7,889 nt of DNA from a virus (taxonomy: Duplodnaviria; Heunggongvirae; Uroviricota; Caudoviricetes), in IMG/VR virus record IMGVR_UViG_2778261509_000002, positions 1 to 7,889 of that record. One strand, 5' to 3'. The notes below the pieces were generated by a model, which had not been told where the DNA came from, searched no databases, and saw nothing but the letters and a program-made list of their open reading frames with translations. The translations under genes were made by a program, and so were the position numbers. Of the stretch, positions 2,157 to 7,689 are shown piece by piece; within the stretch, counting starts at the first letter, position 1; every line of letters starts with the position of its first letter.

Positions 2157-4451
2157 ATGAGTACCACAACACGAAAATTTAAAACCGTTATCACCGATAC
2201 AGGTGCCAAAAAATTAGCTCAGGCAGCCGCGCCAGATGGTAAGCCTGTTCGCCTGACTCATATGGCCGTGGGCGACGGTGGCGGCACGTTGCCCACACCA
2301 GACAGTAAGCAGACCCGTCTGGTGCATGAGGTGTGGCGACACACAGTTAATCGCGTCATCCTGGACGCAACACATCAGAACCGCATTATTGCGGAGCTGG
2401 TTATTCCTCCTGAAACGGGCGGATTCTGGATCCGGGAAATTGGTGTATTTGATGAGCACGGCGATTTAATCGCGGTGGGCAATACTGCCGAAAGTTACAA
2501 GCCAGCCGTTGCTGAAGGGTCCGGTCGTGCACAAACATTTCGCACCATTCTGACCGTATCCAGCACGGCCACCGTGGCGCTTACCGTGGATAACACCATG
2601 GTGATGGCCACAGTGGATTACGTGGATGACAAACTGAAAGAGCATGAACAGTCACGACGTCACCCGGACGCCTCGCTGACCGCAAAAGGCTTTGTTCAAC
2701 TCAGTAGCGCCACTAACAGCGTGTCTGAAACGCAGGCTGCAACGCCGAAAGCGGTTAAGGCCGCATATGACCTGGCTAACGGAAAATATACCGCTCAGGA
2801 CGCCACGACGGCACGAAAAGGCCTTGTCCAGCTCAGTAGCGCCACCAACAGCACGTCTGAAACGCAGGCTGCAACGCCGAAAGCAGTAAAGGCCGCGTAT
2901 GACCTTGCTAACGCAAAATATACCGCTCAGGACGCCACGACGGCACAAAAAGGGATAGTCCAGCTCAGTAGTGCCACCAACAGCACGTCTGAAACACTGG
3001 CCGCGACATCGAAAGCGGTTAAGGCGGTAATGGATGAAACGAACAAGAAAGCGCCCTTAAACAGTCCTGCGTTGACCGGAACGCCAACAACGCCAACTGC
3101 GCGACAGGGAACGAATAATACCCAAATCGCAAGCACGGCTTTCGTTATGGCTGCGATTGCCGCCCTTGTAGATTCGTCACCTGACGCACTGAATACGCTG
3201 AACGAGTTAGCGGCGGCGCTGGGAAACGACCCGAATTTTGCGACCACCATGACTAACGCGCTTGCGGGTAAGCAACCGAAAGATGCCACCCTGACGGCGC
3301 TGGCCGGGCTTGCTACTGCGGCAGACAAGTTTCCGTATTTTACGGGGAATGATGTCGCCAGCCTGGCAACCCTGACAAAAGTCGGGCGGGATATTCTTGC
3401 GAAATCGACCGTTGCTGCCGTTATCGAATACCTCGGTTTACAGGAAACGGTAAACAGGGCTGGTAACGCCGTGCAAAAAAATGGCGATACCTTGTCCGGC
3501 GGGCTTACTTTTGAAAACGACTCAATCCTTGCCTGGATTCGAAATACTGACTGGGCGAAGATTGGATTTAAAAATGATGCCGATGGTGACACTGATTCAT
3601 ACATGTGGTTTGAAACAGGCGACAACGGCAATGAATATTTCAAATGGAGAAGCAAACAAAGCACCACAACAAAAGACCTGATGAATCTTAAATGGGATGC
3701 TTTGTATGTTCTTGTTAAAGCTCTTTTCAGCAGTGAAGTAAAAATATCGACAGTCAATGCACTGAGGATATTTAATTCATCTTTTGGTGCCATTTTTCGC
3801 CGTTCTGAAGAATGCCTGCATATCATCCCTACACGAGAGAATGAGGGGGAAAATGGTGATATAGGGCCACTACGTCCCTTTACGCTTAATCTCAGAACTG
3901 GCCGCATAACTATGGGGCATGGTCTGGATGTTACAGGAGATATAACAACTAACGCCTGGGTGTATGCAAACAGGTTTGCTATTAATAGTGGCTCAACCTC
4001 ATGGATTGATATGCGAAACCAGAATGTCATTTTTGGTAGAAACGCAGTATCAACAAGTTCTGCGCAGGCTTTGTTAAGACAAGACCATGCAGAACGCAAA
4101 TTTTTTGTCGGTGGACTTGGTAACTACCAGTTTGGTTTTTACATGATTAATAACTCAAGGACAGCCAATGGCACCGATGGTCAGGCGTACATGGACAATA
4201 ACGGTAACTGGCTTTGTGGCTCGCAAGTTATTCCTGGCAACTATGGCAATTTTGATTCCAGATATGTGAGAGATGTTCGCCTGGGTACGCGAGTTGTTCA
4301 ATTGATGGCGCGTGGTGGTCGTTATGAAAAAGCCGGACACGCAATTACCGGATTAAGAATCATTGGTGAAGTAGATGGCGATGATGAAGCCATCTTCAGG
4401 CCAATACAAAAATACATCAATGGCACATGGTATAACGTCGCACAGGTGTAA
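2157..4451 (+). CDS. H: Tail fibre protein (P2 gpH-like); constant N-terminal part (aa 1 to about 426) fused in this orientation to a P2-H-like receptor-binding C-terminal part
   Basis: 764-aa ORF starting 2 nt after the I stop. N-terminus (TVITDTGAKKLAQA..., IAELVIPPE.GGFW.RE.G, TVMATVDYVDDK) is gpH-like. Contains VQLSSATNSTSET..TPKAVK fibre-shaft repeats. C-terminus ends ...INGTWYNVAQV. Crossover site L lies in-frame at codons of about 422-430 (VIEYLGLQE). Confidence 0.9.
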   Translation: MSTTTRKFKTVITDTGAKKLAQAAAPDGKPVRLTHMAVGDGGGTLPTPDSKQTRLVHEVWRHTVNRVILDATHQNRIIAELVIPPETGGFWIREIGVFDEHGDLIAVGNTAESYKPAVAEGSGRAQTFRTILTVSSTATVALTVDNTMVMATVDYVDDKLKEHEQSRRHPDASLTAKGFVQLSSATNSVSETQAATPKAVKAAYDLANGKYTAQDATTARKGLVQLSSATNSTSETQAATPKAVKAAYDLANAKYTAQDATTAQKGIVQLSSATNSTSETLAATSKAVKAVMDETNKKAPLNSPALTGTPTTPTARQGTNNTQIASTAFVMAAIAALVDSSPDALNTLNELAAALGNDPNFATTMTNALAGKQPKDATLTALAGLATAADKFPYFTGNDVASLATLTKVGRDILAKSTVAAVIEYLGLQETVNRAGNAVQKNGDTLSGGLTFENDSILAWIRNTDWAKIGFKNDADGDTDSYMWFETGDNGNEYFKWRSKQSTTTKDLMNLKWDALYVLVKALFSSEVKISTVNALRIFNSSFGAIFRRSEECLHIIPTRENEGENGDIGPLRPFTLNLRTGRITMGHGLDVTGDITTNAWVYANRFAINSGSTSWIDMRNQNVIFGRNAVSTSSAQALLRQDHAERKFFVGGLGNYQFGFYMINNSRTANGTDGQAYMDNNGNWLCGSQVIPGNYGNFDSRYVRDVRLGTRVVQLMARGGRYEKAGHAITGLRIIGEVDGDDEAIFRPIQKYINGTWYNVAQV
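2685..3030. repeat. In-frame 132-bp (44-codon) direct tandem repeat inside H: two full copies plus a diverged partial third copy
   Basis: The motif aaaagg...cagctcagtagcgcc recurs at 2684, 2816 and 2948 (period 132 nt). Protein copies are KGFVQLSSATNSVSETQAATPKAVKAAYDLANGKYTAQDATTAR, KGLVQLSSATNSTSETQAATPKAVKAAYDLANAKYTAQDATTAQ and KGIVQLSSATNSTSETLAATSKAVKAV.... The right boundary is approximate. Confidence 0.9.
3421..3446. repeat. Crossover site L for the DNA invertase (gix/pix/cix/hix-like 26-bp site), embedded in the H coding sequence
   Basis: TTATCGAATACC-TC-GGTTTACAGGAA: two 12-bp half-sites around a 2-bp core. Closely matches the gix sequence as recalled (TTATCCAAAACC TC GGTTTACAGGAA). 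It is the inverted partner of site R at 6492-6517. Confidence 0.8.
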
Positions 4452-4982
4452 ATGATGCAGCATTTAAAAAATATTAAGTCTGGAAATCCTAAAACGAAAG
4501 AACAATATCAGCTAACAAAGAATTTTGATGTTATCTGGTTATGGTCCGAAGACGATAAAAACTGGTATGAGGAAGTGAAAAACTTTCAGCCAGACACAAT
4601 AAAGATTGTTTACGATGCAAATAATATTATTGTCGCCATCACTAAAGATGCCTCCACGCTTAACCCTGAAGGTTTTAGCGTCGTTGAGGTTCCTGATATT
4701 ACAGCCAACCGCCGCGCTGATGATTCAGGAAAGTGGATGTTTAAGGATGGAGCTGTAGTTAAACGGATTTATACGGCAGACGAACAGCAACAACAAGGCG
4801 AATCACAAAAGGCCGCATTGCTTTCCGAAGCTGAATCAGTCATCCAGCCGCTGGAACGCGCTGTCAGGCTGAATATGGCAACAGACGAGGAACGCACACG
4901 ACTGGAAGCATGGGAACGCTACAGTGTTCTGGTCAGCCGTGTGGATACGGCAAATCCTGAATGGCCACAAAAGCCTGAATAA
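4452..4982 (+). CDS. G: Tail fibre assembly chaperone (P2 gpG / Mu U / Tfa family), expressed partner of the current fibre C-terminus
   Basis: 176-aa ORF whose ATG directly abuts the H stop (TAAATG). Size and position match Tfa proteins. N-terminal two-thirds closely similar to the convergent second copy at 5011-5544. Confidence 0.85.
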
Positions 4983-4987
4983 AAATT

Positions 4988-5007
4988 AAGGCCCGCGATC
5001 GGGCCTT
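4988..5007. terminator. Hairpin between convergent tfa genes; likely intrinsic terminator (U-tract best on the - strand)
   Basis: Perfect 8-bp stem aaggcccg / cgggcctt with 4-nt loop cgat. On the - strand the stem is followed by AATTTTTATT. On the + strand the downstream tract (GTCTCATTC) is weaker. Confidence 0.6.
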
Positions 5008-5010
5008 GTC

Positions 5011-5544
5011 TCATTCAGGTTGTTCGGGAAATGTTACTGGCAGGCTGGAGGTGTCTGTAGATTCGACTTTCTGCGCATAGAGCATCCACTCGGTTAATTT
5101 TTGTTTATTCTCGTCGGAAATGATGCCCAGCCGTAGCTGTGAGTCCCATAGCTGGGTTTTATCCCTAACGAGCTGTAGCAGGCTTTGCTTTTCATTTTCC
5201 GCCTGCTGCCTCTGCTCTTCCTCGGTATAAGTTCGCTTTACCACTACGCCATCTTTGAACATCCATTTACCAGAAATATCAGCCCGGCGATTTGCTGTAA
5301 TATCAGGAACCTCAACGACGCTTGCGCCTTCTGGATTAATTGCTGAAACATCCTTTTCAATACAAATAATAACGTTGTTGTGGTCATAGACCATTTTCAA
5401 CGTATCAGGCTGAAAGTTCTTTTGTTCCTCATACCAGTTTTTCCCATCCTCTGTATAAAGCCATTTGATGTTAAATTGTTTCGTTAGCTGGTATTGCTCT
5501 TTTGTTTTAGGGTTGCCAGCAGTAATATTTTTTAAATGCATCAT
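5011..5544 (-). CDS. Alternative tail fibre assembly chaperone (Tfa', Mu U'-like), cognate to the silent fibre cassette
   Basis: 177-aa ORF on the - strand with GGGGAG 9 nt upstream of its ATG. N-terminal about 110 aa parallel the + strand Tfa ([21 protein letters not shown]..., [30 protein letters not shown]); the C-terminal third diverges. Confidence 0.8.
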
Positions 5545-5546
5545 AA

Positions 5547-6500
5547 TTAAATACTCCCCGCGTTATACCACGTCCCATTAATGCAATACTGAATTGGCCT
5601 TGCCTGAGTTGTATCAATTAATTCATCACGGTTTCCGTTAACTGAACCCGTAACGACATAACCTGACCTGTCAGACCAGCCGGGACCATTCCATGTCTGA
5701 ACAGATGACAGACCGCCAAGGCGAATACCTGTAATAAACCTTGAGTTACATTCTGCCTGCGTGTATGCACCAACATCTCCCGCAGAGGGTTTGCGGGTCG
5801 TGGTGTAAAACTCTGACCAGTTAGCCTCAAATCCATAACCATCACGCGCTGAACGATAAAAAATACCGCCGTTCCTGTAATTCACGCGGAACTGTACAGC
5901 AGGGCAGCTCCCCGTATTCATATTGAAGTGGAGGATTAATGTCGATGCACCGCTGATATCTGCATCATAAACACCGCTATTCCAGTTCCAGCCAACAGCT
6001 TTATCATTTGCAACCCTGCTTCCTGTTTGCCCTAAAGCAAATGCAGGCTGCTGGTTTTTCGTGTTGTAGTCTCGTCGCCAGCCGGGGGCATAAGCATCAC
6101 CATGATCAATATAAGTGAATTGAGCGTTAGTAATTCCGCCACCGCTGGACGTGCTCGGCGTGGTAACGCGTATGGTCATTGCGCCGCGGGTTCCCATAAC
6201 CTCAATCACGGCTCCGGCAAGGCAGATATTTCCACAACCGGTATCCGTAATAACCCTGTTTCTGGCATAGGACCATGACCCTTTACACATCCAGTATGGA
6301 TGTCGGAAAGCTCCGTTATTCTCCAGCCACGAGATAAATGCAACTGTCGACCATGCACCTTGTGAACCATCGATATCAGTCTGACCGCTAAATGCACGAC
6401 AGGCCCCTGTGTTTTGTATGAATTTATCTTTATTCGGAATATCTGCACCGTTCTGGTTTTTCTGTAATGCGCCAGAAGCCTGATTTACCGTTTCCTGCAA
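5547..6500 (-). CDS. Promoterless alternative tail-fibre C-terminal cassette (H'v, Mu S'v-like); would be fused to the H constant region after inversion
   Basis: Open frame on the - strand running from site R to a TAA 2 nt upstream of tfa'. Its first codons ([15 protein letters not shown]) parallel H residues just after site L (LQETVNRAGNAVQKN). It ends ...[11 protein letters not shown], like H. There is no ATG or RBS; the track's M is a TTG inside the crossover site. Confidence 0.75.
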
Positions 6501-6517
6501 ACCGAGGTTTTAGATAA
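6492..6517. repeat. Crossover site R for the DNA invertase (gix/pix-like), inverted relative to site L
   Basis: TTCCTGCAAACC-GA-GGTTTTAGATAA. Its reverse complement TTATCTAAAACC-TC-GGTTTGCAGGAA matches site L at all but about 3 positions and keeps the same 2-bp core. Confidence 0.8.
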
Positions 6518-6571
6518 TGGCCGTTTCTGACCTGCATGGCATGATTTACGCTTTTGGACGGGAGATTCAGC

Positions 6572-7159
6572 GTGCTGATTGGCTATGTAAGGGTATCAAC
6601 AAATGACCAGAATACAGACCTGCAACGAAACGCTCTTGTTTGTGCAGGATGTGAACAAATATTTGAAGATAAATTAAGCGGGACAAAGACAGACCGACCG
6701 GGATTAAAACGCGCTTTAAAGCGCCTTCAACAAGGTGACACGCTGGTTGTCTGGAAACTGGATCGCCTCGGGCGAAGCATGAAACATCTGATTTCTCTCG
6801 TCGGGGAACTACGGGAGCGAGGGATTAATTTTCGCAGTCTGACCGACAGCATAGATACATCTTCTCCAATGGGGCGTTTTTTCTTCCACGTGATGGGTGC
6901 CCTGGCTGAAATGGAACGTGAATTAATTGTTGAACGTACACTGGCCGGACTGGCAGCAGCGCGCGCACGGGGGCGCACAGGCGGACGTCGCCCGAAGCTG
7001 ACAAAAGAACAGCATGAGCAAATAGCAAGGCTGATTAAAAACGGTCACGACAGAAAACAACTGGCAATAATTTACGGCATTGGTACATCGACGATTTATC
7101 GTTACCACCCCGCAGGAGAATCAAGCGGAACAATAGAGAAGAGTCAGAAAACAAAATAA
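6572..7159 (+). CDS. Serine site-specific DNA invertase (Gin/Pin/Cin/Hin family)
   Basis: N-terminus from GTG 6572 reads MLIGYVRVSTNDQNTDLQRNAL..., the family signature with the catalytic Ser in RVSTNDQ. Further conserved blocks: GDTLVVWKLDRLGRSMKHL, INFRSLTDSIDTSSPMGRFFFHVMGALAEMERELIVERT, GRTGGRRPKLT and a C-terminal HTH (IYGIGTSTIYRY). GGGAGA lies 7 nt upstream of the GTG. The track's TTG start at 6554 adds 6 non-conserved residues and is probably not used. Confidence 0.95.
   Translation: MLIGYVRVSTNDQNTDLQRNALVCAGCEQIFEDKLSGTKTDRPGLKRALKRLQQGDTLVVWKLDRLGRSMKHLISLVGELRERGINFRSLTDSIDTSSPMGRFFFHVMGALAEMERELIVERTLAGLAAARARGRTGGRRPKLTKEQHEQIARLIKNGHDRKQLAIIYGIGTSTIYRYHPAGESSGTIEKSQKTK
6593..6655. 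promoter_or_regulatory. Putative Fis-dependent recombinational enhancer (sis-like) inside the 5' end of the invertase gene
   Basis: Two G-N13-C 15-mers, GTATCAACAAATGAC (6593-6607) and GTGCAGGATGTGAAC (6641-6655), with centres 48 bp apart. Position corresponds to the enhancer within the 5' coding region of hin/gin as recalled. Inference from family knowledge only. Confidence 0.4.
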
Positions 7160-7186
7160 CCGCTAATCTGACCATTAGCGGTTTTT
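7159..7186. terminator. Bidirectional intrinsic terminator between the convergent invertase and gpU-like genes
   Basis: 9-bp stem accgctaat / attagcggt with 6-nt loop ctgacc, followed by TTTTTGTGTT on the + strand. On the - strand it is followed by TTATTTTGTTTT. Confidence 0.7.
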
Positions 7187-7194
7187 GTGTTAAA

Positions 7195-7689
7195 TCAGAA
7201 CAGCCCTTTAACGGAGCTGGCCGCGCTGTTAAGAGATGATGTCACCTTATCTTTGAAGCCGGACAGCATATCGCTGAACGATGAGGATTGCAGGCGCTCC
7301 CGCAAATCCTCATCACAGCGTTCAAGGGTCAGTGAAAATTCTATCTTTTTCGCCTTACCGTAGCGATCAAACTCGGAACGGGTCGTATTCGTTCCGGTCA
7401 GGACATACATGCCGTAAATCTGCCCGACGCCATCAATCAAAGGCCAGGGTCGTCCTGTATACGCCTGCGTGGTCAGCAGCGACAGCGATACTTCGCCACC
7501 TGTAATTTCAGGATAAAGCACACCAGAAAGAACGATGCGATCATCACCTGCACCGATATACTGCCAGCTTGCTGAACGGTTAACGCGTTCATTTTTCACA
7601 TGCCGCCAGCTTTTGTTTTGCTGTAACTGCTGATGCGGCAGCGTGCGCAGCTCAAAAACAAACATGCCGTAGATCATCATCATGGCCAT
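7195..7689 (-). CDS. Phage tail protein, P2 gpU-like (family assignment from recalled motif pattern)
   Basis: 164-aa ORF on the - strand. The pattern GMFVFELRT...SWRH..N.RV.R...WQY.G.G.D.I.LSGVLYPE.TGG...L.......G.PWPL.DG.G...GMYV......T.SEF...G...KIEFSL.LER resembles the GpU family as I remember it. GAGGAG sits 8 nt upstream of the second in-frame ATG (7683), so the true start may be 7683 rather than 7689. Confidence 0.55.
   Translation of the reverse strand: MAMMMIYGMFVFELRTLPHQQLQQNKSWRHVKNERVNRSASWQYIGAGDDRIVLSGVLYPEITGGEVSLSLLTTQAYTGRPWPLIDGVGQIYGMYVLTGTNTTRSEFDRYGKAKKIEFSLTLERCDEDLRERLQSSSFSDMLSGFKDKVTSSLNSAASSVKGLF

Follow-up and report, generated by a model that had tools for sequence, protein, structure and literature searches.

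Do two convergent tail-fibre chaperone genes that mirror each other in a phage genome form a recombination device, or does their symmetry follow from the way the locus is built? The question is raised by a 7,889-nucleotide stretch of caudovirus DNA (IMG/VR record IMGVR_UViG_2778261509_000002, hereafter the window), in which the chaperone genes tfa and tfa' form a long inverted repeat around a perfect 29-bp core. The first-pass annotation of this DNA proposed that homologous recombination between the arms would invert the roughly 590 bp at the centre and swap the chaperone C-terminal domains, independently of the invertase encoded nearby. We dissected the locus, compared it with known invertible systems and searched public genomes for the predicted isomer. 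The repeat is very probably a structural by-product of an invertible cassette of the Mu G / P1-P7 C type, and its 29-bp core no programmed recombination site.

An invertible host-range cassette in a P2-like prophage

The cassette starts within a plus-strand tail-fibre gene of the P2 H / Mu S type (2157-4451, 764 aa), an open reading frame with 90-96% nucleotide identity to the S regions of Mu, P1 and P7. Its Pfam matches (Phage_tail_fib, Phage_fiber_2 three times and Gp34_trimer) describe a P2-type collar domain and fibre repeats; the three Phage_fiber_2 matches belong to three tandem repeats of ~35 aa (…GLVQLSSATNSTSETQAATPKAVKAAYDLAN…) at 2660-2950, in the constant part of the fibre. A gix/cix-like crossover site (TTATCGAATACCTCGGTTTACAGGAA, 3421-3446, plus strand) lies inside this reading frame, where the constant part Sc (2157-3433, plus strand) gives way to Sv (3434-4451, plus strand), the variable part that is now expressed. 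The ATG of tfa (4452-4982, plus strand, 176 aa) directly abuts the fibre stop codon (4449-4451). Facing it is tfa' (5011-5544, minus strand, 177 aa), preceded across a gap of 2 nt by Sv' (5547-6504, minus strand), a silent alternative fibre C-terminal part of 317 aa that would be fused in frame to Sc on inversion and is 95-99% identical to Mu S'. The second gix/cix-like site (TTATCTAAAACCTCGGTTTGCAGGAA, 6492-6517, minus strand) closes the segment.

Both chaperone reading frames match Caudo_TAP (PF02413, E=1e-36 and 4e-37), and tfa matches the 'Tail fiber assembly protein U' of Mu (PDB 5YVQ_B, E=1e-107, ~95% identity), which bears out the first-pass reading of two convergent tail-fibre chaperone genes. 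The first, orthologous to Mu U, is predicted to serve the currently expressed fibre tip, and the second, orthologous to Mu U' (95-99% nucleotide identity to Mu U' modules), the silent one; the two are 59% identical overall. The 28-bp gap between their stop codons holds a GC-rich, terminator-like hairpin (4988-5007), whose T-run, by a simple consensus rule, fits the minus strand alone.

Next to the segment lies a serine DNA invertase of the Gin/Cin/Pin type (6554-7159, plus strand; Pfam Resolvase, E=2e-50, plus HTH_7), whose annotated homologues are named DNA invertase or recombinase. The program-called frame begins at TTG 6554; the starts of homologues indicate that the true start is probably a GTG near 6572 (VLIGYVRVS). 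An 18-nt inverted repeat (89%, 6-nt loop) at 7150-7191 overlaps the invertase stop, extends just past it and separates the gene from a convergent minus-strand tail gene (7195-7689); it is probably a terminator.

Can the whole segment be flipped? The two crossover sites, 26 bp each and in inverted orientation, are the only positions in the window that score above 17/26, and the left one belongs to an inverted repeat, 3417-3481 / 6457-6521. Inversion simulated at their central dinucleotides yields an in-frame alternative fibre of 744 aa, followed directly by tfa'. Multi-site inversion systems (Min of p15B, shufflons) have additional crossover sites inside the segment; a search for such sites here found only the two. 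Window positions 2400-7500, used as a positive control for the isomer search described below and run against the same E. coli set, recovered both isomers at a coverage of at least 80%, 76 inverted and 72 in the window orientation. Searches of this kind therefore do pick up true inversions of the segment. The closest E. coli genome (NZ_OZ282453.1) carries two related, equal-scoring copies (1216237-1221331 and 1598361-1603455), one in the window orientation and one flipped by the invertase. Thus an adjacent serine invertase, two inverted sites, an in-frame fusion and the natural occurrence of both orientations, the marks of the Din family (Gin/Cin/Pin/Hin-type), are all found here.

The closest relatives tell the same story. 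The G segment of phage Mu (S-U / S'-U' with Gin) shares the gene order, the type of 26-bp site and the adjacent serine invertase. The G segments of Mu and D108 are ~91% identical to the 3.3-kb region of the window, and the tfa' and Sv' modules of Mu are 95-99% identical in DNA to their counterparts here. Mu differs in its host element, however, since the window is a P2-like prophage with baseplate genes of the V/W/J/I type upstream and a P2-type fibre N-terminus. It also differs in the N-terminal part of U, just 87% identical to that of tfa, and in S, which can be aligned only partly with the Sv tip (82% over 139 nt). The best phage DNA match is the C segment of P7, 95.8% identical over 91% of positions 3300-6600 and laid out in the same way, with Sv-U converging on U'-Sv'; the C segment of P1, with Cin, is 92.5% identical to the window region. 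Both sit on P1-type plasmid prophages, and the P1 segment is bounded by inverted repeats of ~0.6 kb, whereas the terminal repeats of the window segment span ~65 nt. In P7 (AF503408.1, L207:1829-2362, minus strand), W95 of the tfa'-type gene is replaced by an in-frame stop (…ISGK*MFKDG…); the annotation splits the gene into Ua and Ub, and the interruption coincides with the boundary between N- and C-terminal modules.

The P2-like phage P88 (Xuanwuvirus) is colinear with the whole 3.3-kb region at 92% identity and carries two tail fibre genes, two tfa genes and a DNA invertase; P88 and related prophages differ from the window only in their alleles. Complete E. coli genomes that cover at least 80% of the whole window number 133; none of the E. 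coli records matches it letter for letter, the best reaching 97.1%, and a contig scan with tfa gave 7 loci, mostly distant. Given this anatomy, the in-frame inversion, the identity with P7, P88, Mu, D108 and P1 and the match to Mu U, the locus is a classical S-U / S'-U' switch, a known invertible host-range cassette of the Mu G / P1-P7 C type, here part of a P2-like E. coli prophage.

The inverted repeat and the source of its symmetry

The core, AGCGTCGTTGAGGTTCCTGATATTACAGC, is a perfect 29-mer with exactly two copies in the window, at 4677-4705 (plus strand), where it encodes 10 residues (tfa codons 76-85), and at 5294-5322 (minus strand) by exact repeat search. Not one of 200 shuffles produced a 29-mer inverted pair by chance. 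The first-pass annotation had both the sequence and the right copy correct and placed the left copy one position too far downstream (4678-4706). Around the core, a repeat finder delimits an imperfect inverted repeat of 361 nt, 70% complementary, with a spacer of 376 nt; its left arm (4451-4811) covers the 5' two-thirds of tfa and its right arm runs from 5188 to 5548. The nucleotide likeness claimed for the 5' two-thirds of tfa and tfa' is thus real, and the 29-bp core lies within it. The distance between the two 29-mers is 588 bp.

The symmetry does not stop at the chaperone genes. It runs beyond their starts into the last ~13 codons of both fibres (…RPIQ..INGTWYN…), where a patch of 40 nt, 80% complementary, pairs 4398-4437 with 5561-5600 at the 3' ends of both fibre reading frames. 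The extreme C-termini of the fibres are thus conserved together with the chaperone N-domains, their presumed binding partners.

What keeps the arms alike? In a codon alignment, codons 1-105 of tfa and tfa' are 78% identical in amino acids, with identities of 84%, 88% and 44% at codon positions 1, 2 and 3; from codon 106 to the end, amino-acid identity is 34% and the three positions stand at 48%, 48% and 35%. The chaperones are therefore alike in their N-terminal part and different in their C-terminal part, as had been noted from the letters alone. Third positions are near saturation between the two genes, which makes them old paralogues whose likeness is held at the protein level. Arm similarity would thus mainly reflect protein-level constraint.

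The core itself falls on the most conserved peptide block, codons 76-90, in which 15 of 15 residues are identical. Even so, a perfect run of 29 is moderately unusual for such paralogues (p ~0.008-0.013 in column and codon shuffles), and a short conversion patch is plausible because the run exceeds the shuffle expectation. A role as a conserved DNA element was considered and rejected: third-position entropy in the core is ordinary across 156 unique tfa genes, and its synonymous sites vary among them. When 80 unique convergent pairs are compared, their longest perfect repeats measure anywhere from 11 to 293 bp, and only 7 of the pairs contain the identical 29-mer pair. In Mu, the longest perfect repeat between U and U' is 17 bp and lies elsewhere (the KNWYEE block); against the 29-mer, Mu U shows 3 differences and Mu U' agrees at 27 of 27 positions, and the window tfa carries the U' state at the core. 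The perfect 29 bp is probably a lineage-specific coincidence of codons, possibly aided by a short gene-conversion patch.

The predicted sub-inversion and a rearranged relative

Exchange at the 29-mers would invert positions 4706-5293 and, in simulation, leaves two intact chimeric reading frames of 178 and 175 aa. The proposed geometry thus holds, with 588 bp inverted and both chimeras open. Its occurrence is another matter. We built the predicted isomer from window positions 4300-5700 with the centre flipped (1,401 nt) and used it as a BLAST query. Since the locus is a quasi-palindrome, parental loci also match the query in the opposite direction, with 84-86% identity across ~86% of its length, so that the raw count of 548 records at a coverage of at least 80% is meaningless and isomers were called by identity and ranking. 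No full-length match above 88% identity was found in 5,426 complete E. coli genomes, 72,556 plasmids and 50,697 phage records, all read as consensus assemblies, which are blind to isomers at low frequency within a culture. The best match anywhere covers 91% of the query at 87.8% identity and represents a different allele type, and ~750 E. coli records have the parental order at an identity of at least 90%. In ~500 IMG/VR stretches, the chimeric proteins gave nothing above 88% identity, and the parental tfa' was recovered at 80 loci with 96-99% identity.

The sub-inversion isomer that the first-pass annotation suggested seeking in related genomes is therefore nowhere among those searched, whereas the invertase isomers appear 76:72 in E. 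coli. That annotation had also named what would speak against its proposal, an isomer that never appears together with arms explained purely by protein-level constraint. This is largely what we see: third-position identity is 44% and the isomer is absent from the genomes. As a regular mechanism, homologous-recombination sub-inversion is unsupported. RecA-type exchange at the core, possible in principle, would be so infrequent that public genomes bear no mark of it.

How does this compare with inversions that homologous recombination does produce? Those known between rrn operons, between IS copies and between the C-segment repeats of P1 in cin mutants use hundreds to thousands of bp that are near-identical. 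As here, the segment lies between homologous stretches in opposite orientation, so placed that recombination across them would invert it. The window arms, however, offer 29 perfect bp inside 361 nt at 70%, and the isomer is unobserved. Neither of the two hallmarks we looked for, long near-identical repeats and both isomers in relatives, was found at this locus.

One relative has nonetheless been rearranged at its centre. The locus L003 of E. coli Z0117EC0013 (NZ_CP098219.1, GCF_023658405.1) contains an inverted repeat of 572 nt at 96% and encodes a chimeric Tfa (WP_250838112.1) that is A-type to about nt 292 and U'-type beyond. We compared it by BLAST alignments with L205 (E. coli 2015C-3108, NZ_CP027307.1), whose arrangement is common to ~98 genomes; that of L003 is unique. 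Positions 1-2948 of L003 are colinear with 502-3448 of L205 (2 mismatches), 2947-3960 match the reverse complement of 2941-3954 (0 mismatches), and 3961-6285 are again colinear, with ~4462-6784 (16 mismatches). The rearranged stretch as a whole is L003:2441-3960, against L205:2941-4461. The chaperone 3' ends and the hairpin are flipped relative to their surroundings. An exact inverted copy of the left arm has taken the place of the right arm, which would otherwise hold the N-terminal part of tfa' and the final 212 nt of its fibre, and the arms are perfect over roughly 508 bp by our reading.

At the junctions of L003 the shared sequence amounts to just 2 nt in one case and 1-3 nt in the other, the first junction being ~45 nt downstream of where the core lies. 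With so little identity, and that off the core, the rearrangement does not resemble homologous exchange at the 29-mer. It looks like a mirror-symmetric template switch, or like conversion first and then crossover in the homogenised arms; the sequence of L003 comes from one assembly, and an artefact is possible. Taken at face value, this assembly shows a prophage that is otherwise intact and yet encodes a chimeric chaperone.

What would a C-terminal swap achieve? North et al. (2019), as relayed in PMC9608196, assign fibre binding by Mu Tfa to its N-terminal domain and treat the C-terminal part as a generic oligomerisation module. In the same account Tfa is modular: its N-terminal fibre-binding domain changes along with the tip of the fibre, and its C-terminal helical module is conserved. 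Our survey concurs. Among 48 distinct architectures derived from ~200 fetched loci, nearly every convergent pair has a U-type C-terminal module on one side of the hairpin and a U'-type one on the other, and a third or fourth C type appears in just 3 architectures. These central modules are 85-99% identical to those of the window; N-terminal modules and fibre tips are far more diverse (~70-100% identity). Within the window cassette the paralogues show the reverse of this trend across families, diverging more in their C-terminal parts (34% identity) than in their N-terminal ones (78%). After a sub-inversion each fibre would still be paired with its own binding domain, and little new specificity is expected from it; on the published account, in which the C-terminal domain is generic, the functional consequence drawn in the first-pass annotation was overstated. 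An AlphaFold2 model of tfa made without an alignment (mean pLDDT 35) gave no domain boundary.

Across the 48 architectures, clusters of N-modules are almost always linked to one C type, and no reciprocal N/C swap between any pair of loci was found in the ~200 loci. An A-like N-terminal part joined to a U'-type C-terminal part does occur in 15 of 156 unique tfa genes; their N-terminal parts mostly belong to diverged lineages, 71-82% identical to that of the window. To judge from these genes, N/C reassortment has happened over evolutionary time. One further locus, L168 / L082 (IMGVR_UViG_2693429557_000008), carries two successive convergent tfa pairs (A_N A_C >< B_C, then A_N A_C >< B_C B_N tipB) and may represent a multi-cassette fibre region.

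Weighing the explanations

With high probability, then, it is the structure of the cassette that gives rise to the inverted repeat. Two units of fibre tip plus chaperone, Sv-tfa and Sv'-tfa', would be set opposite each other, and the serine invertase would flip the 3.07-kb segment at the two 26-bp gix-like sites, fusing one unit at a time to the constant fibre. The chaperones would be old paralogues in which protein-level constraint keeps the N-terminal fibre-binding domains and the last fibre residues similar. Such constraint would yield a nucleotide inverted repeat of 70%, the perfect 29 bp falling on the most conserved peptide block. Two findings count against this explanation. Pure chance is uncomfortable with a 29-bp run that exceeds the codon shuffles at p ~0.01, and N- and C-terminal parts do reassort in nature, both in the 15 of 156 genes and in the recent chimera of Z0117EC0013, which joins an A-type N-terminal to a U'-type C-terminal part (A_N::B_C).

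The first of these findings is the one that a short gene-conversion patch from tfa' to tfa would absorb. It would have arisen in this lineage as a non-reciprocal footprint without a function of its own, an account that we regard as possible but doubtful. It would explain why the run is longer than expected (p ~0.01), why the window tfa has the U' state where Mu U differs at 3 positions and Mu U' agrees at 27 of 27, and why no more than 7 of 80 unique pairs have the same 29-mer pair; L003 also shows that copying from arm to arm can occur. Yet the block is the most conserved peptide, with few sites free to differ, and the test is post hoc, the run having been picked for its length. RecA-dependent recombination nucleated at the core, inverting the 588 bp at a meaningful rate as a second, invertase-independent layer of variation, strikes us as improbable, even though the geometry is right and both chimeric reading frames stay intact. 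The core is about the minimal efficient length for recombination by the E. coli RecBCD pathway, reportedly put at ~23-27 bp by Shen and Huang in 1986, a natural A_N::B_C chimera exists in the otherwise intact prophage of L003, and flipping would be easy once arms are homogenised as they are there. Against this stand zero reciprocal isomers in E. coli, plasmids, phages and ~500 IMG/VR stretches, set beside invertase isomers at 76:72, and a nearly strict linkage of N-modules to C-modules. The flanks of the core are just ~70% identical, and mismatch repair suppresses exchange between sequences at that level. Moreover, the only flipped relative, L003, has junctions with 2 nt and 1-3 nt of shared identity, the first ~45 nt downstream of the core, and a C-domain swap that keeps fibre and binding domain together would bring little new specificity. 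Finally, the 29-mer might be a secondary invertase crossover site, as in Min of p15B and the shufflons, or some other DNA-level functional element. By eye its right half weakly resembles a gix half-site (GAGGTT..GATA), but its best match to the real sites is 13/26, within background, and only the true sites exceed 17/26. Its synonymous positions are not conserved in the family and Mu does without the perfect repeat. We rejected the crossover-site role on the 13/26 matches, and a DNA-level function of any kind is scarcely credible.

The structural by-product of the cassette thus remains our preferred reading, and there is no need to mark the repeat, which follows from the design of a textbook host-range switch, as a recombination device. 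The useful results here are negative ones: in public assemblies the invertase isomers are about equally frequent, and the proposed sub-inversion never appears. That sub-inversion is geometrically sound and unsupported, and its functional effect would probably be small. At the level of populations, our survey fits a modular Tfa, with a conserved pair of C-terminal modules at the centre and variable N-terminal modules and tips outside, a picture that may aid the engineering of fibre/chaperone cassettes. We also envision, as an unlikely extension, that the convergent tfa quasi-palindrome is a recurrent substrate for invertase-independent rearrangement of the kind seen in Z0117EC0013, in which chaperone 3' ends are flipped and units copied. 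Template switching, gene conversion or crossover after homogenisation of the arms might be the routes, and such events might now and then copy one unit of fibre tip and chaperone N-domain over the other and so create new combinations of tip and chaperone. If true, this would provide a slow second route for the evolution of host-range modules, on top of the invertase switch.
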